A stretch of 64,000 nucleotides of DNA, from positions 11,284,001 to 11,348,000 of the forward strand of contig CM114271.1 of the NCBI GenBank assembly GCA_050084515.1, given 5' to 3'. Under the pieces are notes generated by a model, which worked only from the letters and a program-made list of their open reading frames with translations, did not search any database and was not told the DNA's origin. Source of the stretch: Blasia pusilla. Lineage: Eukaryota. Below, one piece after another: positions 3,001 through 25,407 of the stretch. Numbering within the stretch: position 1 is the stretch's first letter; the number at the start of each line of letters is the position of its first letter. A program made the position numbers and the translations under genes.

Positions 3001-4987
3001 ACCCGTCTGGTTCTGACAGGTTGCTTATTTCTTTGACTCCTGGGTTATTTTCGTTCCCTTGTAACATTGCCGTCGTTGCAGGGATTGAACGTTCATGAAA
3101 ATGCCCTCTGCCCCAACACAAGTGGAGCAGAAAGTGTTCATTCCTCCTGGAGGTCGTCACAAGCATGCCAACGAATTTCACTTGTGGAGGCATGCCAACA
3201 AGACCAGGCAAGAGCAATCTACTGATCAGAGCATCCCATATCTTTCTCACAAAAGGCATAACAAAAGGAAAAGGGCCGTCGATCTACGGAGCTCTTTGTT
3301 AGGGCGGTTGTGAGATCTGGTGATGAAAATTTGTATGTCGAGCCCTTCACCGGTGCGTAGCTGGAACTCCACTCGAGCAAGACGTACACATTGGTGGGGA
3401 TATTCGTGCAGGGTGTTTCAAGACGTCCCCCATAGATGGTGGTAGAGCAGTCCGAACGAGACTCGTGGAGACCAGATAAGTATCTTGACTTCAGGCAGGT
3501 AAAGAGGCAGCATCGAGGAACGATTTCGGTGATTGATTTGGATGAGGAAATTACACCGCCCGAGTATTCGGGGACCCCGGACCCGTCCCAAATCCGTGAT
3601 GGAGTTACTTCTCCAAAATCAGTGAATGTTTTATTTCAAAAGCCCTCCTTGGCTGGAAGTTCGCAACATCCTGTCACTGGGGTGGTTCAACAATATGGGA
3701 TTCCGGCAATGGAGGTGGATTGCAACCTAAAACGGTGGCATATATCTCGGAGCAACCCAGGATGTGAACCCACCTGCAGGGCAGGATCTGATGGCATTAG
3801 GAGAGCATGCGACACTTTCCTAAATAAGAACTGTACAAGGACTGGACGACCTCTGCCTGGGTTTTGGGGACTCAAAACCTTTGATCGTTTCACGAGGACC
3901 GGGGATCAATTGAAGTACTTCTTCTGCCCAAATGAATCTTGCGCTTTCCGGGAGTCTTATCCGGCTGCCATTGGAGCTCTCGGGAATACCCCCACGATTT
4001 GGCCCATCGGCGCAGGCACGAACTGCACTCAAGACGAAGTGGACAATCTTACAAGTGCCGGTTTCAGACTCGTAGACGGGGGAAGTTCGAAGCATGTTCG
4101 CATTACAGAGACCTTCGCATTTTGTATTCAACCCAAGATTGATGTCAACATGTACCCGGAGAAGGTGGATGATCTCAATCCATTATTTCTGTTTGAGTCT
4201 AGAAATGGGGTGAAGAGAAACAGAATGTGTAGGCCAACGTTGGAGAGAGCAAAACGAATTGCAGCAGCTCGGGAGGCAAAAATGGAGATCATCGCAACGA
4301 AAGATGTCATGAGTGGCAATGGAATAGGAAGGATGTATTGGGTCAGGAACAACACTTTAAATTCAAGTGTCACAGGGGTGTATGTGGTGCACATCTGTTG
4401 CTTTCCCACATGTTCATGTGATGACTTTGTCCAAAGAGAGACAAAAGGCAAAAGGTATTTCCCTTCTAAGCAGATGTACTATGTGTTGCTGGTAGTTTTA
4501 AGAGATTCAGAGGTAGGAGTAGGAATCCACCAACCAATTCTGTCCCTCAAATAAGTTCGAAATATTTTAAACAAACCACTTTGAGGATGCAAAATGAGGT
4601 GGTTGATTGTACTTTTATTTTTTTCTCAACCTTCACTGTGAGCTTGAACTCTATTCAGCCCGGGGAAAATGATAGATTTTTTCCAGACCTTGGATGGAAA
4701 AAGTGATTGGTTCCACACTTATGATTCCACTGATTTTTCAGTTTTGTAAATTTTGTGCAATTTGCAACTCGTCGGACTCACAGGGGTTGCCAAAATATGG
4801 AAGAGGAAAAAAAATTTGTGGGATTGTTTAATAAATGAACAAAAATGTGCAAAAAATTCACACAAAAAGTTTCCTCTCTTCAACCCAACGGAAACTCTCT
4901 TAAAAAAAAAGTATCTATATCGGTTGAAGGTAGTTTCCTCTCTCCTCTCTCCTCTCTTCCTCTCTTCCTCTCCTCTTACCGCACCTC
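1..4987 (+). mobile_element. Mutator-like (MULE) DNA transposon copy E1, transposase arm; runs off the window on the left, right terminus ...ACCGCACCTC at 4987
   Basis: Contains the transposase pseudogene and palindrome clusters. The CT-rich subterminal tract and terminus are shared with copy E2 (8668-8677 ACCGCTCCTC). An 11-bp target sequence follows at 4988-4998. Confidence 0.8.
606..4584 (+). pseudogene. MULE-type DDE transposase with GCM/WRKY-like Zn finger and C-terminal SWIM finger; two exons, frameshifts and stops
   Basis: Zn finger: RQCVGALECRSPAC...RCPHCQASPFC...GSHTHP. Catalytic candidates: GFD (~2085), FMADNAQ (~2280), DAFHWQQS (CxxH-like, ~2370). GT-AG intron 2619-3081 is followed by NTSGAESVHSSW (third acidic residue). 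SWIM finger: CSCDDF...FP(C/S)K(H/Q)MYY. Confidence 0.8.
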
Positions 4988-5251
4988 TCAGGGGCGAGTA
5001 TCAGGGACGTCTGGCAGAGTGGCAGGAACATTCTCTGCCTTGAGGGAAGGCATGAATTTTTTGACCTTTGCAAAGAGGCAAAGGCATATTACAATAGGCT
5101 AGTTGGGGCGTACAACTCTCCTCCGAAGCCGACAACTTCGGTTCCAGACCCACCATTGGTAGTGACACCATCGTCACTTCCCACGATTTCAAAAATCGGG
5201 ACTGCAAATCCGACAGTAATTCGGGAGGAGCTCTCGGACGATGACGAGTGA
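4988..5251 (+). pseudogene. Inverted C-terminal fragment of the beta-class amino-methyltransferase cargo gene
   Basis: Translates SGASIRDVWQSGRNILCLEGRHEFFDLCKEAK...DDDE*, resembling the GSGTT..A...GR..IG.E....Y segment of N6_N4 MTases. It joins in frame to the minus-strand part ending at 8678-8688. Confidence 0.75.
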
Positions 5252-5289
5252 GTTCAAAGAACTCAAGGATCCAACTTAACTACAGCGTT

Positions 5290-6404
5290 TTGGAGTAGGG
5301 ATTTATTTGATGACGAGGCAGAAGAATTCATAGAATCGATCAAATGTATGGTTCTGAGCTTCCTTTGGATGTAATAAAGGACACGATTTTTTCAAACCAT
5401 GATGGTGTTTGTAAAATTTTGTTGAATATCTTTTTTGGTCTTGACGATTGTGATCGTCTATGTTTTCTGACACTTCATAATGCAACCCGTCGGATTGCCA
5501 CGGTTGCAACTTTTCACTTTTTGACCACTGCACCATTCTAACCACTTCCAGGCAACCTGTCGGATTCCGACACGTTGGCTCCATGAGTGATCGGACTCTT
5601 TCCCTGTTAGTCCAACTTTACAGGCATTCTGGCGGGCTTCTTCACTTTGGCATCTTCCCCTAGTTTCATCAAACAAGTCTTAGGCTTCCTCTCTTCTCTA
5701 AGACGTGTTGGATTCCTACTACCTGGCTGAGGACATGATGGTGGCTCCAAGGACGGAGCACATATTGATACTGGATGGGTATCACCTTGCAGAGCGTACA
5801 AGATTTACTGCCAAAGAAGGCGGTGGGACTCAAATAAGGTTACATGGAACCGTTATGGTGTACGTAGGGGGGTGCCAAGGCTCTCGAATTCGCCAACATT
5901 TTCGATCCCCGTCTACAATCGGCCAGAGGAGCTACTTGTATCCCAGGACATTCCTTTTGTACAGGAACCTAGGAGAGTTAGGAGTAAATTTGTAGATGAC
6001 GAGGCTGAAGAAATCATAGATTAGATCAAATGTACATTTGTGAGCTTCCTTTGGATGTAATAAAGGACAAGATTTTTTCAAACGATAATGGTGTTTGTAA
6101 AAGTTTGTTGAATATTTTTTTTGGACTTGTCGATTGTGTTCGTCTAGCTACTTAGAATGTTTATTTTGCAACCCGTCGGATTCCGACATATTGCAACTTT
6201 TCACTTTTTCACCACTGCAACTTTTTAACCATTTACAAGCAAGCTGTCGGATTTCGACAGGTTGGCTGCTTGAGTGATCGGACTCTTTCCCTGTGAGACC
6301 AACTTTTGAGGCATTGTGGCGGGCTTCTTCACTTTTGGCTAGTATTGTCGAACCAGTTGTAGGCTTCTTTTCTTCTCTAAGACGTGTTGGATTCCTACTA
6401 CCTG
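5290..6404 (+). repeat. Imperfect ~420-bp direct duplication (about 5290-5725 and 5980-6404) around a unique ~255-bp segment
   Basis: Both copies run from GATGACGAGGC.GAAGAA.TCATAGA to GACGTGTTGGATTCCTACTACCTG. Confidence 0.85.
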
Positions 6405-7079
6405 TCGGATTGCCATTTTGGATTCCCAACCGGTTGGATTTTTGTGGGTGCAGGGTGGAATGGAATCACTTCTCAAAATCTTTCCTTTGTTATGTTGAGC
6501 TTGCTTGCAAGGGATGCAAGCCATTTGATTCGGACGAGTTGCAAGAGTTGCAACCTGTAAAATTCCGACAGGTTGGGAGGGGTGCAGCTTCTCGGTTTCT
6601 CAGATTTAGGATCTGAATAAACGGACATCAGTTCCTCTTTACTCCAGACAGCTAACAATCTTTTGGTTCAATTATCGTCTTCTGTGTTCACATTTCACAA
6701 AGTTGGTCTTTATTTGAACCTTTCATTGAGATGAGATTGCTACTTCTGGTCTAATTATTTGCCAATGATCCTCCAACAAAAAAAACCTTTGGGCACAACT
6801 TACTGTAGACTGAGACAGGCAATGTGAAGAAACTTAGGCTCATATGGAGAGTGATGGAAAATTTTTTTAGTGGTCTTATGATGTCTACGTGTTTTTCGCC
6901 CCAGGAAAAAGGAGGTTTCTTTAGGCCCAAATGTGGACCACTACCTACTCTCTTCTAAAGATTTCATGAATTTGAAAGCAAACAAAAATTTCAAATATGT
7001 CAAAAAGTTTTGAAGGCGGCGGCGTTTCAATAGCCTTCAAATATGAGAGGAGGCAGATTTGGCCCTTTTTTTCTAACGA

Positions 7080-7142
7080 GAGACTCTCCTCTCTTCCTCT
7101 CTTCCTCTGCTCTCTTCCTCTCTCCTGCCAGAATACCAACCC
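7080..7142. mobile_element. Probable second (cargo-side) terminus of the MULE element, now inverted
   Basis: CT-rich tract like those at 4935-4978 and 8625-8667, followed by an abrupt junction into the middle of the SWIM exon of copy E2. Confidence 0.5.
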
Positions 7143-8677
7143 CCAGATAAGTATCTTGGCTTCAGGCAGGTGAAGAGGCAGCATCGAGGAACGAACCCGA
7201 TGATTGATTTGGATGAAGAGATAACGCCGCCAAGGTATTCGGGGACCCTGGATTGCTCCAAAATACGTGCTTGAATAACTTCTCCAAAATCAGTGAATGT
7301 TTTATTTCAAAAGCCCTCCGTTGTTGGAAGTTCGCAACATCCGGTCGCTGGGATGGTTCAACAATATGGGATTCCGGTCATTGAGGTGGATTGCAACCTC
7401 AAAAGGTGGCATATATCTCAGAGCAACCCTCAACGTGGACCCACTTGCAGGGCAAATCTGATGGCATTAGGAGAGCATGCACCACTTTCCTAAATTAGAA
7501 GTGTACAAGAACTAGACGACCACTCCCTAGATTTTGGGGACTCAAAACCTTTGATCGTTTCACGAGGACCGAGGATCAATTGAAGTACTTCTTCTACCCA
7601 AATGAATCCTACGCTTTCTAAAAGTCTTATCCGGCTGCCATTGGAGCTTCGGGGAATACCCCCACGATTTGGCCCAACGCCGCAAGTACGAATTGCACTC
7701 ACGACGAAGTGGACAATCTTACAAGTGCTGGTTTCATACTCGTAGACAGAGGAAGTTCGGAGCATGTTCGCATTATAGAGACCTTTGCATTTCATATTCA
7801 ACCCAAGAGTGATGTCAACATGTATCCGGAGAAGGTGGATGATCTCAATTCACTATTTTTGTTTGAGTCTAGAAATGGGATAAAGAGAAACAGGATGTGT
7901 AGGCCAACGGTGGCAAGAGCAAAGCGAATCGCATCAGCTCGGGAGGCAAACATGGAAATCATTGCCACAAAAGATGTCCAGAGTGGCAATGGAATAAGAA
8001 GGATGTATTGGGTCACATTAACACTGTTCATTTAAGTGTCACAGGGGTGTATGTGGTGCATATCTGTTGCTTTCCCACATGTTCCTGTGATGACTTTTTC
8101 CAAAGAGAGACAAGTGGGAAAAGGTATTTCCCTTGTAAGCACATGTACTATGTGTTGCTTGTAGTTATAAGAGAGTCGGAGGTAGGAGTAGGAATCCACC
8201 AACCAATTCTGTCCCTCAAAGAAGTGCAAAGTATTTTAAACAAACCACTTTGAGGATGCAAAATGAGGTCTTAGATTGTACTTTCATTTTCCAGAACCTT
8301 CACTTAGAGCTTGAACTCTATTCAGCCCAGGGCAAATGATAGATTTTTTCTAGACCTTGGATGGAAGAAGTGATTTGTTCCACATTTATGATTCCAATGA
8401 TTTTTCAGATTTTTAAATTTTGTGCAAATTGCAACCAGTCGGATTCAAAGGGGTTGCCAAAATATGGAAGAGGAAAAAAAGATCAGTAGGAGTGCCTAAT
8501 CAGTGAAAACAAAAGTGCAAAAAAATTCACCAAAAAGTTTCCCCTCTTCAACCCAACAGAAACTCACTTCAAATCACAAGAAACTCACTTCAAAAAAAAG
8601 TCTCTCTTTGGGTTGAAGGTAGTTTCCTCTCTCCTCTCTCCTCTCTTCCTCACTTCCTCTCTTCTTTACCGCTCCTC
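7143..8677 (+). mobile_element. MULE copy E2: 5'-truncated SWIM exon plus right terminus
   Basis: Collinear with 3472-4987. The SWIM motif CSCDDFFQRETSGKRYFPCKHMYY is intact at 8008-8253; the copy is frameshifted. Confidence 0.9.
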
Positions 8678-11600
8678 CTCGCCCCTGATAGGGCCACTAA
8701 GTCAAAGACCAAGTCACCTGGCCTCGAGCAAAGCTCCATGAGTGTTTGCATCAAGGCAGGTGACTTCTCCCTTCCTTCAAGTAAGGGGATCCCTTGGGGG
8801 AATTGTAGAGACTATCTAAGCTGTACCCATCACAGCATGGATCCACTGGATCCGGGATCTGGAACGCCTGGAAGTTGTGCTCGGGCCTTACAAAGCAGTA
8901 AAAAAATGAGTGGTCCATGTGTGAACAAGCAAGTGGAAAATAATGTCAACAAAAAGAAAAAGCTAGTAGACCGCTAGTCTACTCTCAATATAGTGACATA
9001 ATGTGCAACCCGTCGGGATCCGACGGGTTGCTCATTTGGCTAGGCAGAGGAGCAACCTGTCGAAGTCCGACTGGTTGCTTTTCATCCCGTCCTACTAGTC
9101 CATAATGATTACCAACCCGTCCAAACTTGGCCTACAGGCCCTGACAGAACAGCAACATGTCGGAGTCCCACGGGTTGTTTTTCAACTCTAAGTGGATTCT
9201 TTGGCTATGAGCAACCAGTCAGAAGCTGACAAGCTGCTCATTTTGTCGGACAGAACCTCCACTTGTCAAAGTCCGATGGTTGGCTTACAATTGAATACAA
9301 TTCTTCAGAGTTGAGAGTTTCTTAATATGAGAGCAACACGTCGCTTTCAGACGGGTTGCATCACTCCAAAAACATGTGGAAAAGCAATGCTACTTGCAGC
9401 CCGTCGAGTTTTGACGCGTTGCAATCAATGGAGACTTGTTGGTGAATTTGCAACTCGTCGGTTTCAGACGGATTGCAACATCGCTGACACAAGTGCAAAG
9501 GATCTCAGGAAAGTTTCTAAGGTGAATTTGCAAGCTGTTGGGATCTGACGGGTTGCATGCAGAGATGGAACCCGTCGGAGTCTGACGGGTTGAATTTCTG
9601 TACAAACTCAATTGGTTGAAAAAGAGCACTTACCCGGACTTGAGTCATCACCGATATGAGTGGATTACTCATTTTTAATGACCCATGATTGCGCCATCCT
9701 CCACTTCAGCGACCTCTTCACGCACTGAAGGTTGAAGAGCTCATCTTCGCTCCCTCCCGTGAGGACCAAGAAACAATCCTTGCCACTCAGATTCGCGTCG
9801 GCAAAAGAAAACAACAGCGCGATCTGGTCATACGAAAGCAGGACATTCCAGTCTAGGACAGTGTGTGACGGATTATTGTCCCACAAGCGAATCCCAAAAG
9901 GCAAATCCGCAATGAGGAGGTCCACCGCCACCTCCTCAACAACCCCATGCACCGTCTAGGGGGCGTGCCCGTTTCGAAGGAGTTTTCGTCCCAGCACGGT
10001 CAATTTCTCGATGGCAGGTGTCGACTCTTGAGAACTGAAACTGTGCAGCTCATCGACAAGATGAGTCAAGTGAAGAAGGACATTTGTCTTGGTGGTAGTT
10101 TCCCTATGCCTGCCCAAGAATGATGGAGTGTATTCCACATCCTTATCTCCTCCCTCGGACTAACCAGACGCCTCCCGCTTTCACTTCTCCTGAGTCTGCT
10201 ATCCGCTTGTTGGAGTCTCCATTACCTTAGACTCCACATGAGTTTTCTTGGACGAGGACCTGGTCCAGCCCTCTTGCCCCGCTTGCCCAGACGATTCCGC
10301 CTCTCACCTTGAAGACTCAGCCTCTTTTCTCGAAGAGTCGACTTCGGAATTCCTCGATCCCCTTGCCTTGGATTTCAAACCCGCTATGGATTTTTCTTTG
10401 GCGGTGATGACCTTTGCCACCAACTCCGCTATCTTGAGGGCTTGCTCTTCCGCATCTCCTTTGAAAAAATTGTTAGGCTTCACGAAGTTCGGAATGTCGT
10501 CCCTACCTGCGACCAGTGCATGATAGACCACACGTAGATTTTTGTCCGTAATGTCCTCTGAGTGGTTGAAGTCCAACCAGATTGGACAATTGATTACCTC
10601 CTAATCGGACATGCCCTATCCCATCTCCATGTCATTTATGGAGAATCCCTCTCCATCAAGCGGAGAAGCCCACAATTTGCAGGCTGCCGGAATTTTTTGC
10701 CTAGTACCTGCATTCATACAATTGATGAGGTACCTGTACACCATCCGCTCGGCAGCTCTTTGTTGAGATGACTCGACCCCTTGGTCCTGAAGATCTCGCT
10801 TCTTCTTTGCAAAATCCCATTTTCTGGCGTCTATTTCCTCATCCAGGTCTGCCTGAGGGAGGATGTGATTCTTGAACATCATCTTGAATCATGGGTTTTT
10901 CGTCAGCTTCTCTCTAATGTCATCAAGCCATAGTTCAAAATCTTCTACAGCCTCTAGGTTTGCTTCTTCTGGAACTGGCTGAATCTTCTTCAGCTCTGCT
11001 TGTAGACCCACGATCATGGACTTCCCGAGAAGGCGCAATGCGTCCCAGAATGACCATTCCCGTAGCCAATGGGAGATCACTAGATCTGAAACTCCCAACG
11101 GGTGGTGTGCCGCCCACTTTTGGGCCTCAGTGCCCTCGAGACTGATTTTCATCAATCGGATATCCCAGACATCGCAAACCTGTGCACGCGGTCCAGAGAC
11201 ACTTTCTCTCCAATCTGACCCTGTGGATCTTCGTCTCTCTTCCGCACGCGCTTGATTATCGCCTTGAGCTCCTTGTAAAACTCCGGGCCAAGTTCGGGGT
11301 TGAGGACTGCAATATAACGCTGCATCTTGCTTGCAATGTACTTTGTAGTTGTAGATACGGCATCCTGAATAAACTTTGCACATTCTGATGCGGACACGTT
11401 CTCCCTTTGCTCCAGTTCCAACGTAGCACTATTCTTGGCGGCCTGGATCTTGGACCAACATAGGATTGTGACGGTTGCATCTTGGGAAATGAAGGTATTT
11501 TCCCATGTCTTCTTTTTTATTTGAGCTCCCTTTTCCAGCATTTCATTCACCAGATCCTGGCCCATGAATCCCTTGTACTCTTCCGGGTGCATCGTAAGCA

Positions 11601-13945
11601 CCTTCTTGACCGTGTTGCAATCTTGGATCCAGTGGTGGGTGACGTTCCCCTTGGATAAAATCCTGCAAATCCAAACACAAGGTAAGAATACTGCAAGCTA
11701 TTGGGTTCTTGCAACCCGTCGGACTTTGACGGATCGCTATTTTGTCAACCTTTCGGGGTCCAAATTGTAGCATAGAGATACGTGTTGCAACCCGTCGGAC
11801 TCCGACGGGTTGCAATTCTATCAATCCATCGGGATCCAAATCATAGCACAGAGATAAGTGTTGCAACCCATTGTACTCCAACGGGTCGCAATTTTTTCAA
11901 CCCATGGGGGTCCAAATCGTAACACAGAGATAAATGTTGCAACCGGTCGGAGTCCGACGGGTCGCAACACTCGTCTTTGTGTTATATTTATTACAACACG
12001 CTTGAAATTTTTAGAGAGAATTGCAACCCATCGGAGTCCGACGGGTTGCACTTTGTGTTCGTGACTCTCAGGTCCAAGCGATCGGTTCCTCTTATTCCTT
12101 GGTTCCAACCCGTCGGACTCTGACGGGTTGTAGAATGACTTCCTTTCGGAGATAGGTTTCCGGATAAAAACTGACCATATCAACCTGTTAGAGTCCAACT
12201 GATTGCGCAATGGCCCTGTAAAGCTGGAATTGGATGCCTAAGAGCAAGGTGTGGGACTCCGACCACGTAGCTTGGGGGAAAATGCAACTTGTCGGAGTCC
12301 GACGAGTTGCTTCCGCCAAAAGTATCAAAAAAATAGCAGACAGTCCAACAACTCGTCAGACTTTGACGAGTTGCTTTTAGGCGTCCGATGATTTGTTACC
12401 CCTCATTGTGCAACTCGTCTAAGTCCGACGGATTGAAGAAAAAATAAATCATGCAGTCATTTTTCCACCCGTGGATGTTTAACTGGTTTCAGTATCCCGG
12501 ATTAATGTTGTGAGCTTGGCCACCAGGCAACCCGTCGGACTCCGACGGTTTGCTTGACTATGACCTTGATCACAAATAGGATGGTGGCAAGAGACTCAAA
12601 TCATTCTTGCCCATCTCTAAGCTTTCCAATTATGCAACCCGTCGGACTCCGACGGGTTGAAGCAATCAAACTTAAGGATGAGGAAACTTACGTATTCATC
12701 GCATGCATTGCCATTTCCACCCTTGCCATGTGATGAGGAAATGGATGGAGCACAACTGACTTCACACAAAAATGCGCCTCCAATGAATTTGGGTGCTCCT
12801 CTACAAACTGCGTCCACGCCATGTACATGTGGTTCCCATCCCAAATGAAGAAGTAGAGGTTCCGGATCTAGCTAAATTGGGTTCCTTCAATCGCTCTTCT
12901 GAAGTCCTGATCTCTCATCCTCCACAATGTATCCAATGCCTCCAAGTCCTCTTCTGTCACCAGAGCTTGGGTTCCATGTTCATTGTAAGGCTGAACATAG
13001 AACGGAGGGAAGCTGTCGACGTAGGATTTAGTCGCTGCTGACTGTTTGAGCTTTGCAATGTCCTCCTTCGACTAAATTTCACGCACATACTTCATTGTCC
13101 GCAATCGACAGAGTGGATTTCTTGGGGCCTTTTGGCCTTCCATTTGTGCCATCTGCTTAACAACCCGCCACAATGGGGACAAAGTCAATAAAATACTATG
13201 TTTTGCCAATGAATTGCATAATGAGCCTTCACATAACTTGAGTTTTTCTTACCCGCTCAAAGATTGGGTCGGTGTCCAAGCCCGCCAGCTGCTTTGGGAC
13301 AGGAGCTGGCAAGTCCACGGGAAACTCATCGATCCGATAAAGGTCGATTTCTTCCACCGGCCTCAAAGACGACAAAGACTCTTCTCTTGCTTCTTCAGAG
13401 ATGTCCACCATCTCCACACTTGTTGTCCTCGTGACCTCATCGTCCGTCACTTGAACTTCGGCCATTTCCTCAGCCAATTTTAGATTCATGGTATCCCAAG
13501 ACCTCATCGGAGATATTTCCTCCATCTCAACATTGTTTGTTGGATGGGCACGGATTTCTTCAATGGCAATTTCTTTTTCTCTTTGAGCTTTCCCCAATTC
13601 TGCTCTCCTGGCGGAGGCGTCAAGACGCTTCTTCTCGCGTTTCTCGTCCGCGACAATTTTCTTCAAGGCCTTTGATGCCTCAACCTCGGCGTTTTGCTTT
13701 GCAAGCTCCTTTAGAGCAACTTTTGCTAGAACTTCCTGCCTGTGCATATCTGCTTCCCTTTCCCGCTCCTCTATTTCTTGTTGCCTTATCTCATTCGCTG
13801 AATGAGGACTTGGAGATGGTGATGCAGGAGTCCTGATAGACTTGGGAGTGATGCTCCCTACCTTGGTTACTTGTGTTTCCTTTCTCGTCATGGTGCACGT
13901 TGGGTCAGTTCTTCCTCCTTGACAGTCTAATCTGCTCTTGTGCAC
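8678..13945 (-). pseudogene. Cargo gene: charged/coiled N-terminus, ParB/Srx-like domain and beta-class N4C/N6A DNA methyltransferase; at least 3 exons, decayed
   Basis: ParB-like: VREI*SKEDIAKLKQS...PPFYV...FFIWDGNHMYMAW (WDGNH at 12829-12843). GT-AG intron 12691-11663 splices in phase. Motif IV VDLLIADLPFG (DLPF at 9896-9907). Second intron 9633 to ~8887. Motifs X/I EKSPALMQTLMELCSRPGDLVFDL at ~8700-8775. Start codon uncertain. Confidence 0.75.
11785..11815. repeat. Perfect exemplar of the dispersed palindrome TTGCAACCCGTCGGA-N-TCCGACGGGTTGCAA
   Basis: 15-bp inverted arms with a 1-nt spacer. Degenerate copies cluster at 1-400, 2740-3030, 9000-9600, 11700-12660, 14300-15000 and 17790-18650. 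Confidence 0.95.
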
Positions 13946-14289
13946 AACAGATTCCTCAAAGCTTCGATGGAGTGCCTAAACGCAACTCACGAAGCGTTTC
14001 GTGATGAAGCGCCGTGACCCTTGAGCGGATGGGCTTGCCGAAATCGAACCTCAAAGTGTCGGGTGCTGGATCGTCGTAACCTTCCAACGAAGGGGTCAAT
14101 GTAATCGACTTTGGCAGCGGAAAGGTACCATCAGCTAGTGCCAGGAAGAGCACATAAAATCCGCGAAATGAAAAATGGAAATGAGCAAAATCTTAGCCTT
14201 TTATACTTTTCGAGCCGTTAAGCTGACCGTTGGGTCATTGGGTCGTATCGACGGCAACGTTGGCCGTTATGGAACTTTGCACATGGGAA

Positions 14290-15000
14290 CCCCGGAAACC
14301 CATCGGATACCGATGGGTTGCACACTTCCCTCATCTTGGGGATACAAGGCGAGGTACCCGGGCAACCTGTCCAAGACCGATGGGTTGCATGCTTCCCTCG
14401 TCTTTGGGTAACAAGGCGAGGTACCCGCGCCACGCGTCGGAGGCCAACTGGTTGCATGCTTCCCTCGTCTTGGGGTAACAAGGCAAGGTACCCAAGCAAC
14501 CTGTTTGAGACCGACGGGTTGCAAGCTTCCCTCATCCTCAGGTAACAAGGCGAAGTGCCCAAGCAACCCATCGAAGACCGACGGGTTGCACGTTTCTCTC
14601 GTCTTGGGATAACAAGGCGAGGTACCCGTGCAACCCGTCGGAGACCGATGGGTTGTACGCTTCCCTCATCTTGGGGTAACAAGGCAAGGTACCCGCGCAA
14701 TCCGTCGTAGACCGATGGGTTGTACGCTTCCCTCATCTTGGGGTAACAAGGCGAGGTACCCGTGCAACCCGTCGGAGACCGATGGGTTGTACGCTTCCCT
14801 CATCTTGGGGTAACAAGGTGAGATACCTGTGCAATTCCTCGGACACTGACGGGTTGCATGCTTCCCTTGTCTTGTGGTAACAAGGCGAGGAACCCAGGCA
14901 ACCGGTCTTAGACCAACGGGTTGCATGCTTCCCTTGTCCTTGGGTAACAAGGCGACAAAGCATAGTCCCGAGGCAACCCATTGACCTCCGACGGGTTACA
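14290..15000. repeat. Tandem array of ~10.5 units of 67 bp, each containing the palindrome
   Basis: The (A)ACAAGG anchor recurs at 14343, 14410, 14477, 14544, 14611, 14678, 14745, 14812, 14879 and 14946, an exact 67-bp period. A degenerate homologue lies at 1-340. Confidence 0.95.
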
Positions 15001-15004
15001 AGGT

Positions 15005-17737
15005 CTACCCGCGGTTGGACACTTCCCACCATACGGCAAAAGTGCCCCGTATTATGGAGGCACATATTGGGTGATCCAACTTCATCTAGGATTTGGTGGT
15101 GGCACAACTTGGATTGCATAGCACCCTCCCCACTATTCGGGTTCATACCACCCTTCTTCTGTAATGGGATCTTCCTAGATCCAACGTAAATCCCTCTCAG
15201 TATGACATTCCTGGGCAGTATGCCGTTGGGTTCTGCAGGTACTGCACCAGATGTTGGGCCTCATCAGACCTGGTCGTCTTCTGGGATCCTTCTGGGCCGC
15301 CAGATGTACCTTCAATTCTGCCATTTGCTTACTTAGCTCTTCCATGGCCGACTTGTCGGCCTTCCTCACTGTCCCCCTCACTGGACTTTCCGACCGCTGG
15401 AGAAGGTGCTTTGTTGGTCGGGTTTTCCTTTGGTGCTTGGGAGAGTGGTGGCGCGTGCTTTTTCTTTTCCGTTTAGATTTTAAATCTTTCTCAGAGTCCG
15501 AGGACTCCGAAGTGTCCCCCATAGAGGATTCCGTGTCTGTGGAAGACGATTCGTCCTCCGACGAAGCACTAGTTTGCGACGAACCTCGTCGTTGGTGACG
15601 CCATCTTCATTTTTTACGGGACTTCTCTAAGGCCTCGTACGCCTCTGCGGAGCTACATGGGTAAATTCAAGCACAAAGTTGTCCACATCATCTCGCCGTT
15701 CCCCTGCAAAGGTGGGGTATCTTAGCAGCGTCTTCCTAGTATTGGCCATGGGGAATGGTCTGCTGCTGGGTCCCGGGCTTGATGCTCGGGAGGGAGGAGG
15801 TAGCGGTTCGGCTATAGTTGACTTGGTCGGCTCCATGTCCCCCGAGTCCTCAAAGGGGTCCCAGGTTGACTCTTCGTCCGACTGCGAACTAGCAGGGGAC
15901 GTAGTGGAGAGTTTGTTCCTCTCTCTCTCCTTGCTCTTGGGCTTCGTGCGTAGACGAAGACCGGGAGACAGCCCAGGCGGTCTCCAAGACGGGTGATCTT
16001 CTTGCTGCTTACTGCGTCGATCGGCTCGCTGATCTCACGAAGAGGGCCGGGAGCCTTCCATGAGTCCCTTCTGGGATTCAGGAGTTTGCTTCCGCACCCA
16101 CGGTCGCAACAAGGTAGGGGTCCATGGAGGGAAATTAAATGTTTCTAATTCCTAAGCCTACAGGAGTGTGCCCGGTGCTCTTAATCTTCATGCCAGGTTT
16201 TCCTCCCATAAATAAAAGTACCGGGTCATCACCAAGAACAACTGAAGTTCATGGGCGGAGCACCGTTCGGTGACTGGTTTATTGACAATACTAATTAATT
16301 GTTCTATCTTTTCTAGCACCAATGCAGCAAATCGGTTGTTATCTTCTTTCATCCATTGTCTGAGGGGGATAGCTAGAGATAGCAGATGGTCTTTAGTAAG
16401 AACTGACTGGTTGGGTCTTCTAGGAGACGAGGCTTCTTTCCCCGCTCCCAGATTCCCCATGTGTCTCTTTCCCTCTTCAGCAAAGCTTATGATCTCGGGC
16501 AGCGGCGCCAAAAAGTTTCTTTTTGTATGTAATGTACAAGAGTTTTTATTTTACAGTCGTTTTAATAAGTTCGATCCTTAAGAGGATCATTGTTTGATGA
16601 AAAGAGAGTTCGAAATTACAATTCTGTTGTAATAGTTGTATTTAAATGTGTATGAGTTCTATTCAATGTCATATCAATATCTGCTGATCTTTCTTAGTAC
16701 CAAAGGATCTTTTCTCGATTCTCTCTAGTGGAATTGATAGCAGGTTCATGTAGATTTTCCTCTTGACATCAAGAAACCTCACAGAGATCTCAACATGAAA
16801 GCTGGCTTCTCCTACTTTCGGAACTCAATCCGTCTCGGCACGCTACTCTCTGTCAAAAAGATTTCCTACAACTCAGGTTGATTATTTCATTGATGAGAAA
16901 GGTTTGCCTGATTCACTCTTCACTTTGTAGACCCAAAAAGAATACTCAAACATAAGCATCGCACATCAAAATGAATGAATAATTGCTTTACTATTCCATC
17001 AAGAATGAGAAAGCTTCAAAGTGTATACAAGCTTGAGAGGGTACTACTCCCTTGCTCAGACCATTCCTACAGCATAAGGATTTTGTAAGAGAATGATGAT
17101 TATGGCTTCTATCTTGTTTCTTAAATACTCGCTGGAGTAGAAGTGATCCAAAGATTCAAAGCATTCTTGATGAAGCGAGTGTCTCTTCACCATTTCTAAC
17201 TACCTAGATCTATGGTTCTCTTAGCTTTTCCTACGATCCCTGTGAATCCGCAGAACAAAACTGTCCCAACTACCAATTTGATACAAAGGGTCGCGCCTCT
17301 TCCTAGTCTAACAGTTCTAACGTGCGTCGCTTGAAATCACAGTCGTTCTTAGCTTCGCTTCGCTGGACTTCATGAGGACGAAGCACTTCATGCTTTGTTC
17401 TTATTTCAGATGCTTCGTGCTTCGCACTTCATACAAGAGCGAAGTACTTCTTTCTCCTCTTCTTCATGCTTCGGTATGCTTCGTTATAGAGCGAAGCACT
17501 TTGTAGACAGAGCTTTGTTGAGCTTCGTTGAGCTTCATTATTGCATTTTCCTCTCCACTAAGGCAAATCCTTGATCTTCCATCTCTCTACCTTGTCCCAA
17601 GAGCTTCGTGATTCACTTTAATCTTACTCATTCTTCCTCATAATAATAAATAATCAAAATCAAAATCATAATGTACAAGAGTCTTCTTTGAATAAAAAGA
17701 TACATTTCTTCAAAAGTACAAAATTGTGGGTATCACA
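15005..17737 (-). mobile_element. Truncated Ty3/gypsy-type element: 5' LTR (~16524-17737), PBS and decayed gag
   Basis: The LTR begins TGTGATACCC on the minus strand and matches 53054-54263. PBS TGGCGCCGCTGCC at 16498-16510 (-) is Athila/Tat-like. Zn knuckle CSTCRTQRHTAQEC. Inserted in the MULE transposase intron (the right flank matches 2668). Confidence 0.8.
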
Positions 17738-20700
17738 AAAGTTGTAGCTCAAGTTGAGAAGCGTGTGCACTATAGGGATTTCAAACTGCAGAAAACCAAG
17801 CAACCCGTCGGAAACCGACAGGTTGCATCAAGAATGTTTGTGCAACCCGTTGGAACTCGACTGGTTGCATGAGTGTCACACCCGTCCGAGCGCGACATCA
17901 TGCACGAGGAATGTTTGTGCAACACGTCGGAACCCGATTGGTTGCATGAGTGTGCAACCCTTTCGAATCCCAATGAGTTGCAAGTTGCATGTATACAAGG
18001 CCTGCAAATAGTTTGATGCGGATGGGTTGCAAGCCCCAAGGCTGCGAGTTAACTTGGTCTGCAACCCGTCGGATTCCGACAAGTTGTGTCTGTCTGCAAC
18101 TTGTCGGATTCCGACTAGTTGCCTCTGTATGCGACTCATCACATTCAGACAGGTTGTTGTTGTCTCCAAGTCCTCGCATCCAGACACGTTGCATCAGTGC
18201 AAGTTAATTTGAACCCGTAAAATTCCAATAGTTGCAAAGCTACCTATGTGGACACTTCTTGCAAGCCAACAAAATCCGACAGGTTGCACAAGGATTTTTT
18301 AGACCGGACCGGCCTGCTTCTCACAACCCGTCCGATTTTGATGGGTTGCAGTAGTAGGTTCCCGAGTGCTAGGTTGCAATAAAAGGTTATTGGGACATTC
18401 CAAGGATGTCTCCAACTTGCAACCCGTTTCAAGTCGGAGGCTGGAAAATCCATGTGCAACCCATCGGATTCCGATGACTTCCAGTTGGATCTTCCAGCCC
18501 GGAGTGGCCAAAGTTACTTGCAACCCGTCTGAACCCCACAGGTTGCACTAGGTGGTTCTTGGATGTTGCAACACGTCGGAAACCGACCGGTCACAGAGTC
18601 ATTCATGGGATGCCTCCGACTTGCAACCCATCTTGTTCCGACAAGTTGCTTTTTTCTTTGCTCATAGAGTTATTTTCGTTCCCTTCTCATATTTCTGTCG
18701 TTGCATGGATTGAACATTCATGAAAATGCCCTCTGCCCCAACATAAGTGGAGCAAAAAGTGTTCATTCCTCCTAGAGGTCATCACAAGCATGCCAAAGAA
18801 TTTCATTTGTGGAGGCATGCCAACAAGATCAGGCAAGAGCAATTATCGCGCCCCTACTCTCCTTGAACGTCAATCTTTAGTGTTGCGGAAGCGTGCGTTC
18901 AGTAGGTCACGAACTCATCGCCGATCTGCACCCAAACACGCACTCTCGTTAGTCGGGTTTGGCCAACCAGCGTTCCAACCCACCAAGTCCTCAACTCGGC
19001 GTCTCATTAAGCTCAACCTTCCTTAGTTCCTAGCTCCCAACACATGGCAAGTCCTTCAAGACTTGGAACAGACTTCCTGGTTAGTCCAGGGATCTGAAAC
19101 AGCACTTGCACGCCTAGCAATCCCAGCTATTCAACGGTCCTCGTGTGAGTTCCGAACCGAGACCCAAGTAGTTGAGTCGCGGCGTGAAATCCAAGAGGGA
19201 TGCCTAAAATCGCCTCAATGGACTTGGTGCAGGTTTTCCAACCCAACGCCCAAACTCGCGTTCCGTTCCATGCCCTTGAGCTGCCCCGCGGCGCCCAAAG
19301 TGGGGTTTGGGTTCCAAGCACTCTCGGAGACCTGCCCCCTTACTAGTACTTTTGGGGTTCTCCAATAACCCCTCCCCTTTGGGAAAAGAGGTTCGGGCCC
19401 TTCATTGTGGCCCTCAACCTGACTCCACTTACAGTTGTTTTCGGGTTGTATCTCGGCCGCTGCTTATGCGTTTGCAACAATCTTTGGTGCGTTTGGACCG
19501 GCTCTCCATAAGCTTTCCAACGCACCCTTATTTGCTCCAAAACCATCTTGGCGCTAAAAGTTATGGCCATAAATACAGTCGGAAACTCTCAAACGTAAGT
19601 GGCGTTCCAAATCCGGATCTTTCCTTTGGCAACCCCCTTCCTAGACTCGACTTCTTTCAAGTCTCATTCCGCGTTTGGTCCAGGTTTCTGAGTCACAACC
19701 ATAACACCTGAAACGCGATTCCTTGCTCGCGTCTCGTCTCTTGTCTCCTCTTTGAGACACCTCCAACGCGCAAACCATCTTAGCGTGAGTCCGCTAATGT
19801 TCTGATGTTCCGCTTGGTACTTGTTTGGTCATGAGGGTCGCGACAGCAATGGTACAGTCTGCAGCATCCCATATCTTCCTCAAAAAAGGCATAACAAAAG
19901 GAAAGGGGCCTTCAATTTATGAGCTCTATGTCAGGGCGGCTGTGAGATCTGGTGATGAGAAACTCTATGTGGAAGCCTTCAATCAGTGCGTAGCAGGAAC
20001 TCCTCTCGAGCAACATGTCCACATTGGTGGGGATATTTGTGGGCGTGTTTCAAGACGTCCCATACAGATGGTGGTAGAGCAGTCCAAGCGAGACTCGTGG
20101 AGACCAAATTAGTATCTTGACTTGAGGCAAGTGAAGAGGCAACATCGAGGAACGAACCCAATGATTGATTTGGATGAAGAAATTACGCCCTGGTATTCGG
20201 AGACCCGGGATTGCTCCTAAATCTGAGATGCAGTAACTTCTCCAAAATCACTGAATGTTTTTTTTTCAAAAGCCCTTCGTTGCTGGAAGTTCGCAACATC
20301 CGGTCGCTGGGGTAGTTCAACAGTATGGGATTCCGGTCATTGAAGTGGATTGCAACCTCAAAAGGTGGCATATATCTCCCAACAACTTTGAACGTGGACC
20401 CACTTGCAGGGCAAGATCTGATGGCATTAGGAGAGCATGCGGCACTTTCCTAAATAAGAAATGTACAAGGACTAGACGACCACTCCCTAGATTTTGGGGA
20501 CTCAAAACCTTTGATCGTTTCATGAGGACCGAGGATCAATTGAAGTACTTCTTCTGCCCAAATGAATCCTGCGCTTTCCAAAAGTCTTATCCGGCTGCCA
20601 TGGGAGCTCCAGAGAATACCCCCACGATTTGGCCCATTGCCGCAGGTACGAATTGCACTCAGGACAAAATGGATAATCTTACAAGTGTCCACTTGAGTCT

Positions 20701-21618
20701 CGTAGACGGAGGAAGTTCGGAGCATGTTCGCATTACAAAGACCTTCGCATTTCGTATTCAATCCAAGATTGATGTCAACATGTATCCGGAGAAGGTGGAT
20801 GATCTCAATCCACTATTTTTGTTTGAGTCTAGAAATGGGATAAAGAGAAAGAGGATGTGTAGGCCAACGGTGGAGAGAGCAAAGCGAATTGCATCAGCTC
20901 GGGAGGCAAACATGGAAATCATCACCACAAAAGATGTCCAGAATGGCAATGGAATAGGAAAGATGTATTGGGTCATATTAACATTGTAAATTCAAGTGTC
21001 ACAGGGGTGTATGTGGTGCACATCTGTTGCTTTCCCACATGTTCCTGTGATGACTTTTTCCAAAGAGAGACAAGTGGGAAAAGGTATTTCCCTTGTAAGC
21101 TTATGTACTATGTGCTGCTTGTAGTTTTAAGAGAGTCAGAGGTAGGAGTAGGAATCCACCAACCAATTCTGTCCCTCAAAGAAGTGCGAAGTATTTTAAA
21201 CAAACCACTTTGAGGATGCAAAATGAGGTCTTACATTGTACTTTCATTTTCCAGAACCTTCACTTTGAGTTTGAACTCTATTCAGCCCCAGGCAAATGAT
21301 AGATTTTTTCCAGAACTTGGATGGAAAAAGTGATTTGTTCCACACTTATGATTCCAATGATTTTTCAGATTTTTAAATTTTGTGCAAATTGCAATCCGTC
21401 GGATTCAGAGGGGGTTTCCAAAATGTGGAAGAGGAAGAGAGGAGAGAGGAGAGAGGAAACTACCTTCAACCCAAAGAGATACTTTTTTTTAAGAGAGTTT
21501 CCTATGATTTGAAGAGAGTTTCCGTTGGATTGAAGAGAGGATACTTTTTATGTCAATTTTTTTGCACTTTTATTCTCAGTGCGTAGGCACTCCTGCACAA
21601 AATTTTGCCCTCTTCCAC
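17738..21618 (+). mobile_element. MULE copy E3: transposase intron (palindrome-expanded), second exon with SWIM finger, rearranged subterminal region
   Basis: Collinear with 2668-4970. Splice acceptor mutated (GTTGCAT at ~18700). Interrupted by a solo LTR. Confidence 0.9.
18844..19845. mobile_element. Solo LTR (~1.0 kb) with 5-bp target site duplication GCAAT
   Basis: Ends TATCGCG...CGCGACA (TG..CA with one change). GCAAT at 18839-18843 and 19846-19850. The MULE exon continues on both sides. Confidence 0.9.
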
Positions 21619-21619: not shown

Positions 21620-24600
21620 CAACTATAAACCAGTATCACACACAATCACAAGGTGGTGATGGTGGAAACCATTGGGGTTGAGATCAGTAGTAGAGGATCC
21701 CTGGATCTTGCAATTACTATGGGATAAAGGATCACTATGCAAAGTTTTGATTCAAGAAGAAGGCAGATATGAGAACAAGAGCCTTACAACAACAAAATTA
21801 TGTGGAGCAACAACACGAAGAGCAGTAACAAAAACAACATCATTCACAAACGAAGCATCTCTTGATCATGACTCATCATATGGAAGCAATGGTCAAGAAA
21901 GACTCGACAGCAGATTGGTACATTGATTCTAGAGCATCAAATCACATGACCTCACAAGCTAAATGGTTTAGTAGTTTGGAGCCGGTGAAAGATCCTGCAA
22001 TTGTGCTCATAGGAGATGACACTCAACATCATATCACGTAAACCGGTAAAGTTCCAATAGCATCATATGGTCTTTGTGCTCTTGGAAATTTTCTTTATAT
22101 TCCTACCATTGCAAGAAACCTGATCTTTGTAGTACATATAGTAGAACACGGTTATCAAATGAAGTTTAACGTAGATGGTTGTTTTATTGAAATAATGGAT
22201 GACCAGACTACGATAGCCAAAGGAACTAGATCTGGCAGAATGTTCAAATTAGATATTTTTATACCAAAGATTCAAACAGCAATGTATGGTCAAACCGGCC
22301 AACAAGTCACAGATCTAAATATGTGGCATAAAAGAATTGGACATATGAATCTTCAAAGATAACAGAATCTTTCATCATCTAATATAGTAATAGGACTCCC
22401 TAAATTAGCAAGTCCTACTACATTAGAGGTATGTCTTGCTTGCCAATTTGGAAAACAAGCTAGATTTCCTTTTCCAAAGTAAGATAGAAGAGCATCTACG
22501 ATATTGGAGTTGATCCACAGTGATGTGTGGACAACATCACAACATAGCCTTAGTGGTTGCCAGTACTTTGTTTCATTTATTGATGACTTCTCTAGATATA
22601 TATGGATATACTTTCTGAAAGCCAAGTCAGAGGTATTCTCTGTGTTCCAAACATCCAGAGTTCTAGTAGAGAAGCAAATTGGAGAACACATTCTGAAATT
22701 GCGTTGTGATGGAGGAGGAGAGTATCTTTCAACAGAGTTTGATGACTATTTACGTAAGAATGGCATTCAACGTCAAGTGACTTGCCATTACACTCCACAA
22801 CAAAATGGAGTGGCTGAGAGGAAGAATCGACATATTGCTGAAGCGGCACGAGCTATGTTGAATGAGAAGAACATGCCTAAGGTCTATTGGGCAGAGGCTG
22901 TAGCATGTGCAGTTTTCTTAATCAACTGAACTCCAACAGCAGGAGTTCATGATAAAACTCCATTCGAAGTCTTCACAAAAAGTAAACCTGATTTTTCCTT
23001 CTTGAAAGTATTTGGCTGTATTTGTTACGCTCATGTTCCTTTTGAGAGAAGCGTTGTTAGATCCCAAGTCTGAAAGATGTTAGATCCCAAGTCTGAAAGA
23101 TGTATCTTCATTGGCTATGCTGATGGAACTAAGGGATATAAGTGCTACATTCCATCCTCTAGGCAACTTATTATTAGTCGAGATGTTGTCTTTGATGAGC
23201 TAAAGTCATGGTATGCTCCATATGTGCCTATTCCACCTTTAAACTTGTATATTGAGGGGGAGAATATGATTGTAAACCAACACACATTGTCTTCAACTTC
23301 CCCAAGTATTAGTGCAGGATTAGGAGAGGTCCTAGATTCATGAGTTAAATCTGTAAGTCCATGGATGGGAAGAGTACGTATTCAGTCTGTTGACACTAGT
23401 CAGAGCTTGAGTCAGGTATTACAAGCATCTACCTCTGAACAACAACTTCGTAGATCAAGTAGAGTTATACATCCAGTTCATAGAATCATAAATGAAGGTT
23501 TCCTTTCGACACATCATGCATATATAATGATTATCCTTCAAGAACAAGAGCCAAATTATTTTGAAGAAGTTGCAAGTAAAGTCGAATGGATTGAAGCTAT
23601 GGAGGAAGAGCTTGCTGCATTAAGACATCAACAAACATGACAGCTGGTTGATATACCTTCCGGTAAGGAAGCTATTGGTTGCAAATGGGTTTACAAAATC
23701 AAGCGCAATCAAGATGGTGCAATTAAGAGATACAAAGTGAGATTGGTGGCTAAGGGCTATGCACAACAATATGGTATCGATTATGAGGAAACATTTAGCC
23801 CTGTTGCAAATATGGCGACTACGAGAACAGTGGTTGCAGTTGCAGTAAGTAAGAAATTGAGATTACATCACATGAACGTCAAGAATGCTTTCTTGAATGG
23901 AGATCTATACGATGAGGTATATATATGACTCAGCCATCTGGATACGAGCATCCAAAGTTTCCATTTCGCGTATGCAGGTTGAAGAAAGCTCTATATGGGC
24001 TCAAACAAGCTCCAAGAGTTTGGTATGGCAAGATTACATACGTTCTACAAGAGTTGGGTTTTAGGGTATGTGATTCTGACTCCTCGTTATATGTCTTGAG
24101 AGGAAAAGATCATACGGTTCTCATTGTGTTGTATGTTGACAATCTCCTGATTACTGGGAGTATTGAAGAAATGGTATAACAAGTCAAGCTTAAGTTACAA
24201 GTAAAATTTGATATGAAGGCCTTGGGAGAACTCAAGTACTTCCTTCGTATTGAGTTTATCAAGGTTGGAGAAAGCAGGTGGTTACTACAACGACAATATG
24301 CTATTCATATGCTTTCAAAATATGGTATGACAGCTTGTAAGTCAATCTCTACACCGTTGGACCAAAGCGTGAAGCTAAGAGTGGATGAAGGAGAGATGCT
24401 TGCACATTCTAATATGTACAGGCGCGTGGTTGGAAGTTTAATCTATCTAACTATAACCAGACTAAATTTGAGTTATGGTGTTGGCCTAGTGAGCCAGTTT
24501 ATGCAAGCACCTCGGAAACCTTACCTTGATGTTGTGAGGAGGATTATGCAGTATGTGAAATTCTCTATTCAATTCGGGCTTCAATTTGAACCTTCTCCGA

Positions 24601-25407
24601 GTTCTCAATTATAAGGATTCACAAATGCTGATTGGGCAAGAAGCCTGTCTGATCAACACTCCACATCTGGTTATTCATTTACTTTGGGAAGCGAAGCTAT
24701 AAGTTGGGCTTCAAAGAACCAACCTACAATTGCTTTATCTTCAATAGAGGTTGAGTACAGAGGAGTAACCAATGCCGCATGTGAGGCGGTGTAGTTTCAT
24801 CAATTACTTGTTGAGATTGGTGTTAGTAACTTAAGACCTAGTGTAATATATGCAGACAATATTAGTAGCATCAAGCTTGCTAATAACCTTGTGTTCATGC
24901 TCGTACAAAGCATTTTGAGGTGCACTATCATTTTATCAGAGAGAAAGTACTTGCAAGAGAAATAGATCTTGTGTATATAGGTACAGATCAGCAAATTGCT
25001 GACATCTTTACAAAGGCATTGTCGAGAGATAAGTTTGAGATGTTTAGAAATTATTTAGGCGTTAGAGATATCGATATGAGCTTAAGGAGAAGTATTGAAG
25101 ATTGAGTTATAGTCAAGCTCATGAGACACCTGAACTGCTACATTTGGTACTCACACGAAGTAGGGAAGCTTAATGTTGGTTAGTCAGTTAAGCGCGATTA
25201 TCTTAACTATGGTTAGTTAATCACAGTTAGTCTAACTCGAGATTAAGGTTAGTGTTAGAGTTGCTTGTACATACCCTATATAATTGAGAAGGGGAACAGC
25301 CTCTATTCATTCTCTCATTGCAAATTTCGTTCTCCATGGTGGTGTGTGTGTGTGAGAGCCGTTTTCCACCAGTTATGCTTGTTTAGCAGTTTTCCATAAA
25401 TCTAACG
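21620..25407 (+). mobile_element. Ty1/copia retrotransposon relic, 5' truncated, with 3' LTR at about 25093-25407
   Basis: Domain order: protease WYIDSRASNHMT, WHKRIGH, integrase (LIHSDVW, LRCDGGGEY, PQQNGVAERKN), RT (RLVAKGY, LYGLKQAPR, LYVDNL), RNase H (QQIADIFTKAL), then a purine tract at ~25084. Many stops. Confidence 0.95.

Follow-up and report, generated by a model that had tools for sequence, protein, structure and literature searches.

A decayed ParB/sulfiredoxin-fold exon in Blasia pusilla and the many-copy, intron-bearing land-plant gene to which it probably belongs

The DNA considered here, a stretch of 64,000 nucleotides from Blasia pusilla (assembly GCA_050084515.1, contig CM114271.1, positions 11,284,001 to 11,348,000; the whole of it is called the window), is eukaryotic DNA rich in transposable elements, and it carries on its minus strand, from 13891 down to 8680, the remains of a spliced gene. 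The second exon of this gene (exon 2) is the subject of our study. With a probability of about 0.85, exon 2 is understood as the ParB/sulfiredoxin (ParB/Srx)-fold domain of a land-plant gene that bears introns and exists in many copies, the copy at hand being decayed and without function. A domain of this kind had been proposed in an earlier note made from the letters of the sequence, together with its splicing to a methyltransferase, its decay and its origin from a prokaryote-type fusion; the evidence bearing on each of these is presented below.

The locus and its decay

Direct translation of 13110-12692 on the minus strand gives the very string that the earlier note had read there, including its two stops, and both are TAG codons in the frame of exon 2, at 13074-13072 and 12870-12868. 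The motif DGNHM is encoded at 12840-12826. Regarding the extent of 12692..13110 claimed for the domain, the lower limit stands, with the exon ending in ...AAT AC at 12692 and a GTAAGT donor at 12691-12686, but the upper limit falls inside the exon because the exon probably begins at 13152. On the other side of intron 2, the acceptor ...TTTGCAG finishes at 11663 and the G at 11662 completes an ACG codon, therefore the reading frame continues (ILSKGN...). The in-phase AC|G splice onto 11662 is thus supported by the frame, by the splice signals and by the tblastn alignment of the homologue P0012, in which residues 263 and 264 flank the proposed junction of exon 2 and exon 3 exactly (13137-12694, then 11661-11161). 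Upstream of exon 2, the acceptor of intron 1 is the only phase-compatible one to be read from the sequence. The product of the probable exon 1 is charged and of low-complexity or coiled-coil-like character (open reading frame 13229..13975); no Pfam family matches it, and the N-terminal parts of the relatives are not homologous to it. Used as a protein query for longer homologues, exon 3 found none at E ≤ 1e-3. The features of the locus are collected in Table 1.

Table 1. Parts of the decayed gene and adjoining features, in window coordinates
Feature	Position	Strand	Basis and remarks
Tandem array	14219..15054	.	Period 67 nucleotides (nt), at least 9 units, same palindrome as in intron 2; about 330 nt upstream of the ATG
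Probable exon 1	13253..13891	-	ATG at 13891; 213 codons; phase-0 end before GTAAGA
Probable intron 1	13153..13252	-	100 nt; GT..AG; read from sequence
Exon 2, decayed ParB/Srx-fold domain	12692..13152	-	Homology, fold of a relative, motif
Intron 2	11663..12691	-	1029 nt; GTAAGT...TTTGCAG; phase 2; packed with copies of a palindromic repeat of 23-25 nt
Exon 3, helical region after the ParB-like domain	11161..11662	-	Collinear with P0135 328-486; frame closes with a stop at 11154-11152
Central part and beginning of the methyltransferase domain	9749..11185	-	Other frame; 8 in-frame stops; tblastn to P0135 492-712 and 802-1014
Motif IV (DLPFG)	9907-9893	-	Alignment with relatives
Methyltransferase motif I region (GREKSPALMQTLMELCSRPGDLVFDLVALSGA)	8680..8775	-	Matches P0135 1107-1138; last homologous residues; PF01555 E 0.034
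End segment of an unrelated dispersed repeat, in place of the 3' end of the gene	8465..8666	.	Repeat comparison

Beyond exon 3 the gene is broken at several points. The frame changes near 11161-11185, as seen in tblastn alignments, and the translation of 11179-9668 meets 8 in-frame stops, several of which fall inside homologous blocks. Homology to P0135, an intact liverwort relative, stops at 8680, and sequence of the other, dispersed repeat extends from about 8666 downward; the last ~70 residues of P0135 (1139-1207) have no tblastn match (E ≤ 1) in any part of the window. Because the domain itself has two stops and a lost Arg, the frame is shifted, eight more stops follow and a repeat has taken the place of the 3' end, the copy in the window is to be regarded, as judged by its sequence, as a dead, non-functional relic.

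Homologues, motif and fold of the ParB-like domain

With its stops written as X, exon 2 was searched by phmmer against a library of 1.84 billion representative proteins and matched 132 of them at E ≤ 1e-3; for 33 of these E was 1e-10 or lower, and the top match reached 1.4e-19, with identities of about 30-35%. Thirty of the 132 matches were looked up: Riccia sorocarpa, a liverwort, accounts for 14 (all hypothetical proteins), the fern Adiantum nelumboides for 4, and 12 come without an organism name; no prokaryotic name occurs among these 30. Conservation in the homologue alignments runs along the whole of exon 2 and across the splice. Within the 64-kb window there is no second copy, each gene piece matching only itself, and metagenome contigs searched with the family members P0019 and P0170 returned pattern matches and no confirmed relative.

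The homologues also record the intron. Matches that reach the last full codon of exon 2 number 91, and 56 of these end exactly one residue later, one has three residues more and 34 go at least six further. The tail residues of the 56 (K 26, M 6, S 5, W 5, R 4, L 3, G 2, A 2, V 2, E 1) can all be written as NNG, as expected from an open reading frame caller that runs into a phase-2 intron opening with G-TAA or G-TGA. Among the 34 longer matches, the liverwort gene models continue into sequence homologous to exon 3 of the window. The position of intron 2 is conserved across the family, to go by these sequences.

A near-invariant I/V-P-L-C-R opens the domain (region 13125-13100 in the window; P 88/92, L 91/92, C 89/92), and we know of no ParB counterpart of its conserved Cys. 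The signature motif was evaluated with alignment A1, which comprises 49 sequences, its first row being a 202-residue stretch of P0135 that is 33% identical to exon 2. Aligned to the A1 profile, the 132 matches have D in 109/130, G in 120/130, N in 128/130, H in 124/130 and R in 106/128, so that DGNHR, whose ancestry the earlier note had left to the sibling copies, emerges as the family motif, and the Met of the window as a departure, read from the alignment, from the family state. The Arg is kept by the family and lost in the window copy, which also departs from a conserved W (118/125), F (104/112) and G (88/114). The earlier note had guessed that Met at the signature Arg reflects decay, and this is indeed the appropriate understanding since the family carries Arg and the window departs at other strongly conserved positions. 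In ParB-fold proteins, Ala replacement of the conserved Arg in the phosphate motif is reported to abolish nucleotide binding (10.1101/2025.10.10.680097).

The fold was approached through the P0135 stretch, whose AlphaFold2 model from the 49-row alignment reached a predicted local distance difference test (pLDDT) score of 90.8 and a predicted template modelling (pTM) score of 0.81. In this model of an intact relative is found the ParB/Srx alpha/beta core common to ParB-N, Srx, SerK and SbnI, to which are added an inserted helical segment and, at the C-terminal side, a long helix, with long helices after the core. Compared by Foldseek with the PDB, the model gave nothing at E ≤ 1e-3; its best match was ParB bound to CDP (6sdk, E 5.9e-3, probability 0.99), and ParB, Noc, KorB, PadC, pNOB8 ParB, Srx, SbnI and free serine kinase make up 31 of the 34 rows listed, the three rows of other folds appearing only at ranks 46, 47 and 49. 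The VIA comparison agrees in that members of the ParB/Srx superfamily occupy the top 8 of its 14 rows, with KorB (8.2), PadC (7.4), pNOB8 ParB-N (6.7), Arabidopsis Srx (6.1), SerK (5.3), Atu1540 (5.2), SbnI (4.6) and human Srx (4.5) followed by SspE (3.1), BrxU (3.0), Spo0J (2.9), a DndB-system chain (2.3), Osa (2.3) and a designed protein (2.0). Among the viral structures of BFVD, phage ParB and partition proteins stand on top, the leading rows also holding two phage methylases (named 'DNA methylase' in a mycobacteriophage and 'modification methylase' in a siphovirus), and giant-virus proteins (CroV, Orpheovirus, Gaeavirus) are found at similar scores. The three structure searches, carried out with the model of the intact relative, thus uphold the assignment of a ParB/Srx domain. 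The sole hint at sequence level is phrog_1033, a 'ParB-like partition protein', which is the commonest PHROG match of the 49 aligned members (7/49, best E 0.065); Pfam shows only DndB among them (2/49, best E 0.066).

Methyltransferase domain, copy number and mobility

Two full-length liverwort gene models, P0135 (1207 amino acids) and P0194 (1244 amino acids), contain both domains, the ParB-like one near residue 270, followed by about 650 residues without a Pfam family and then by the methyltransferase domain, in which D-L-P-T-G (or D-M-P-S-G) precedes GDIVIDFAGGWG by about 170 residues. The fern protein P0061 likewise contains both DGNRR and DVPFG. By tblastn, P0135 is collinear with the remains in the window from the ParB-like exon to motif I: residues 174-321 correspond to 13125-12694 (the ParB-like exon), 328-486 to 11643-11161 (exon 3), 492-712 to 11161-10418 in the other frame, 802-1014 to 10417-9749 (E 0.002, including DLPFG) and 1107-1138 to 8775-8680 (motif I). 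The earlier note's placing of the ParB-like domain upstream of the methyltransferase, in one spliced frame, is supported by this collinearity and by the liverwort and fern models, themselves predictions. The permuted order of the beta class is present, as DLPFG at 9907-9893 precedes GDLVFD...SG at 8718-8683, and it is the same in P0135 and P0194.

Pfam family PF01555 (N6_N4_Mtase), with a cut-off of 26.7 bits, was tried on nine paralogs and scored 31.7 and 27.0 bits on two of them and 19.9-26.6 bits on five, two remaining unmatched; one of the matches covers profile positions 16-217 of 221. P0135 scores 23.7 bits. The fragment in the window scores 14.5 bits (E 0.034), and this match to the motif I piece is the only one that Pfam gave for exon 2 and seven other gene pieces. 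The structural model of the methyltransferase has a pLDDT of 51.7 and, at this low confidence, matches CcrM (1.4e-7), M1.HpyAVI, M.MboIIA, M.BceJIV, M.RsrI and N4CMT (5.3e-5). Motif IV of amino-methyltransferases has the consensus (D/N/S)PP(Y/F/W). None of the forms seen here agrees with it: the window has D-L-P-F, the fern D-V-P-F and the majority of liverwort copies D-[LM]-P-[TS]. The aromatic residue of the motif is retained in fern P0061 and in the window and is Thr or Ser in most liverwort copies (P0135, P0194, P0136-P0153). To judge from the sequences, Thr or Ser at this place may reflect an altered or lost catalytic pocket.

The gene exists in many copies. Two homologue searches gave 26 of 26 and 23 of 23 hits as distinct Riccia proteins, distributed over 8 contigs. 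A DNA sequencing run with the species label of the window contributed 7861 reads at ≥90% likeness (160 at ≥99%, 1602 at 95-99% and 6099 at 90-95%), with near-fixed differences from the window among the exon reads (77/78 at 12865, 123/128 at 12759), and these likeness classes and differences indicate many diverged copies in the species of the window as well. Read depth over the gene extends to 14100, and the upstream tandem array of Table 1 may belong to the repeated unit. Depth peaks over a palindrome of 23-25 nt (AACCCGTCGGA-N-TCCGACGGGTT), of which the window holds 23 copies at ≤3 mismatches against 0 expected, all of them within 304-18085. The copies, among them 11789-11811 and 12636-12658, fill both long introns of the gene and have swollen intron 2 to its present size; besides the array of period 67 nt, there is one of period 76 nt at 11709-11936.

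Transposase, reverse transcriptase and integrase are absent, by Pfam, in or beside the gene, and repeat comparison within the window revealed no bounding repeat tied to it. That the gene is mobile is suggested by its copy number alone. The earlier idea of an intron-bearing gene mobilised in a plant genome accordingly stands as regards the many copies and the conserved intron, but neither a mobility protein nor a bounding repeat accompanies it. A dispersed repeat of 1.4-1.6 kb is present in three direct copies about 90% alike (3413-4977, 7084-8666, 20045-21440), and its terminal 60-190 nt recur inverted after the third copy (8465-8651 versus 21431-21617; over the 60 nt of 8592-8651 versus 21431-21490, 98% complementary). 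Copies of this repeat end at 4977 and 8666, and the inverted segments belong to it and not to the gene. One of its open reading frames shows a SWIM-like Cys/His pattern; the repeat at 7084-8666 was considered as a Mutator-like element and rejected, the SWIM zinc finger scoring only E 0.14 and the other reading frames being without a family. Elsewhere in the window, Pfam identifies fragments of copia-type (rve, RVT_2; 22483-24611) and gypsy-type (RVT_1, RT_RNaseH; 52099-54667) retrotransposons. Upstream of the gene and on the same strand, two open reading frames at 15175-16034 look gag-like by eye, with a CX2CX4HX4C knuckle, and have no Pfam family.

Three RNA runs with the same species label yielded 80, 88 and 98 reads at ≥90% likeness, drawn from 6-12% of each run, and since the sampling is thin they say nothing firm on expression or splicing. 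Reads gather on a 123-nt methyltransferase block at 8796-8918 (depth 9-19 in the three runs, 90-99% likeness, first mate on the plus strand, loose ends on both sides), a pattern as expected from an exon of a related copy elsewhere, if that copy is transcribed and spliced. At 12984-13174, depth is 1.6-2.8 on the strand side opposite to that of the reads at 8782-8972, with a break-off at 13143; these reads come from a paralog because they differ from the window, and those at 12984-13143 may represent antisense transcription of the ParB-like exon of a related copy.

Rival accounts, origin and known systems

The points that weigh against understanding exon 2 as a ParB/Srx-fold domain of a methyltransferase gene are best considered together. 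Pfam is blank for exon 2 (E ≤ 1) and for 16 relatives (E ≤ 0.01), ParB_N (PF02195) is matched by 0/49 aligned members even at E ≤ 5, and the A1 profile searched against PDB sequences returned chance-level rows only (eL24, E 0.021, and carbonic anhydrase, E 0.93, were taken as chance). The fold is that of a model, built on a 33%-identical relative and not on the broken sequence of the window itself; the structure matches of the methyltransferase, given the low-confidence model behind them, serve as supporting evidence only; and the full-length proteins are, as sequences, gene predictions. Exons 2 and 3 attract almost no RNA reads and, in thin sampling, none of the rows listed shows a joint across either intron. 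Lastly, catalysis is uncertain even in intact copies because their motif IV is non-canonical.

Regarding the origin of the family, acquisition of a ready-made phage-type ParB-methyltransferase fusion is plausible and the simplest reading, because domain order, the enriched phage partnership and look-alike clusters agree, with the sequence bridge absent. Fusions of the ParB fold with N6_N4 methyltransferases are described as enriched in phages and prophages, PF01555 being among the enriched partners, in a recent study (10.1101/2025.10.10.680097), and the statement in the earlier note that such fusions are typical of phages and prophages finds support there. The order in these fusions, ParB first and beta-class methyltransferase last, is that of the plant proteins. 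Protein-language look-alikes of P0135 are two Streptophyta clusters (0.95, 0.93) and then, as the nearest named ones, phage N6_N4_Mtase+ParB_N clusters at 0.82-0.83, scores which fall below the 0.9 line and are leads only; the prominence of phrog_1033 among the PHROG matches points the same way.

The competing account, in which the domains were not co-inherited from a phage or prokaryotic fusion and were joined inside eukaryotes by domain shuffling, or in which a eukaryote-infecting giant virus supplied the gene, is possible, although we hold it for the less probable one. Consistent with it, the plant proteins have about 1,200 residues, with the ~650 residues between their domains, as compared to 403-530 amino acids in the phage fusion clusters listed by Atlas, and giant-virus proteins score similarly to those of phages in BFVD. 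Moreover, sequence searches from either domain reached no prokaryotic protein and no ParB-methyltransferase phage protein; when 50,697 phage records were compared with the methyltransferase domain by tblastn, just three motif-I-sized matches of 46 residues each appeared (E 4e-3), one of which, in phage Lrm1, is a 252-residue methylase without ParB. Iyer et al. (PMC4738411) report clades of eukaryotic methyltransferases that stem from ParB-terminase loci of phages, and place them in haptophytes and chlorophytes, not in land plants. As to the earlier note's proposal that a prokaryote-type fusion had been acquired, fold, domain order and look-alikes point in its direction, but the sequence searches do not lead to a prokaryote or phage.

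A further possibility is that the ParB-like exon and those of the methyltransferase come from different genes or transcripts, their single frame being an artefact of prediction. The missing RNA joint, the many liverwort entries that contain one part only, and the sense-side RNA of a paralog on the methyltransferase block, together with few reads of the ParB exon on the other strand side, would fit such a scenario. However, the same order of parts recurs in two full-length liverwort models, in the fern model and in the collinear remains of the window, the junction of exon 2 and exon 3 is exact in phase and in homology, and broken copies, like open reading frame callers halting in introns, would be expected to leave short entries, all of which renders separate genes improbable. 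Still further down in probability is a diverged plant sulfiredoxin as opposed to a ParB-type module. The GGCHR motif of sulfiredoxin holds its catalytic Cys, in the place of which Asn is found in 128/130 members; KorB, PadC and pNOB8 ParB score equal or higher than sulfiredoxin in the structure comparison; and the domain has its helical insert and long C-terminal helix. Despite two stops in frame and a blank Pfam result, the notion of a non-coding stretch that happens to contain a ParB-like word is practically negligible, because 132 proteins match exon 2 at E ≤ 1e-3, down to 1.4e-19, with conservation across the whole exon and the splice.

Exon 2 is therefore best discussed as the ParB/Srx-fold domain of a dead member of the plant gene family. 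Intact members would be proteins of about 1,200 residues that comprise a low-complexity N-terminus, the ParB/Srx domain with DGNHR, the stretch of ~650 residues and a beta-class N6/N4 amino-methyltransferase with motif IV before motif I. By analogy with ParB, KorB, Srx and SerK, their ParB/Srx module might bind a nucleotide triphosphate via the motif Arg, and such binding might be coupled to how the methyltransferase is loaded onto DNA or controlled there, an idea already put forward for the phage fusions. No such action would be expected of the copy in the window, given its Met for Arg, its stops, its frameshift and its replaced 3' end. Taken to its full extent, the proposal is of a family with nucleotide-gated ParB/Srx module and beta-class amino-methyltransferase, of phage or giant-virus descent, spread as cargo or engine of a palindrome-marked mobile unit, its intact copies writing N6-methyladenine (6mA) or N4-methylcytosine (4mC) on plant DNA; in this complete form we regard it as doubtful. 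If true, land plants would possess, next to MpDN4MT1 and independently of it, a second DNA-methylation system of bacterial type, and the question is raised whether plants with the family contain 6mA or 4mC deposited by its members, and on which DNA. Literature on ParB-methyltransferase, plants, eukaryotic PF01555 and DN4MT1, supplements left out, contained no description of the family, which thus seems undescribed. Given the poor scores of both domains against the profiles, surveys that look for ParB-fold proteins or eukaryotic methyltransferases by Pfam would overlook it.

Among known systems, the phage and prophage ParB + N6_N4 fusions (PF02195 + PF01555) share with the plant family an N-terminal ParB/Srx domain with Arg phosphate motif, a C-terminal beta-class methyltransferase and a link to mobile or many-copy DNA. 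The plant proteins differ in their larger size and long spacer, in spliceosomal introns and nuclear location, in a motif IV of D-x-P-[FTS] and not DPPY, and in having no sequence-search link of either domain to these fusions. From the clamps of ParB, KorB and Noc, which depend on cytidine triphosphate (CTP), the family is set apart by the missing Pfam ParB_N match, by DGNHR (the ParB motif being GERRxRA), by the fusion to a methyltransferase and, apparently, by the lack of a ParA partner. Compared to sulfiredoxin, it is without the Cys of the motif, the protein is much larger and there is no sign of redox function. Dam-like adenine methyltransferases borne by retrotransposons lie within retrotransposon polyproteins and are reported to be absent from Streptophyta (10.64898/2026.05.21.726589). 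They resemble the plant family as prokaryote-like DNA methyltransferases on repeated or mobile eukaryotic DNA, but the methyltransferase is a different one, and the plant gene is interrupted by introns, with no reverse transcriptase linked to it.

Among the amino-methyltransferases that eukaryotes have gained by horizontal transfer, two invite comparison, the rotifer N4CMT, which carries a chromodomain, and MpDN4MT1a/b of Marchantia, both of them beta-class, bacterial-type N6/N4 methyltransferases encoded with introns in a nuclear genome. In Marchantia, the motif of MpDN4MT1 is TSPPY (10.1101/2021.02.12.428880), and the protein is reported to have no extra N- or C-terminal domains (PMC8885841). 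N4CMT and MpDN4MT1 are host genes of one or two copies, whereas the plant family numbers dozens of copies and has the ParB-like domain in addition. Eukaryotes rarely possess amino-methyltransferases of bacterial type, and N4CMT and MpDN4MT1, the two cases that have been studied, each opened a new chapter of eukaryotic epigenetics. The family to which exon 2 probably belongs would add a third kind, many-copy and intron-bearing, present in at least a liverwort, a fern and the species of the window, and with the phage-like pairing to a ParB/Srx module kept.

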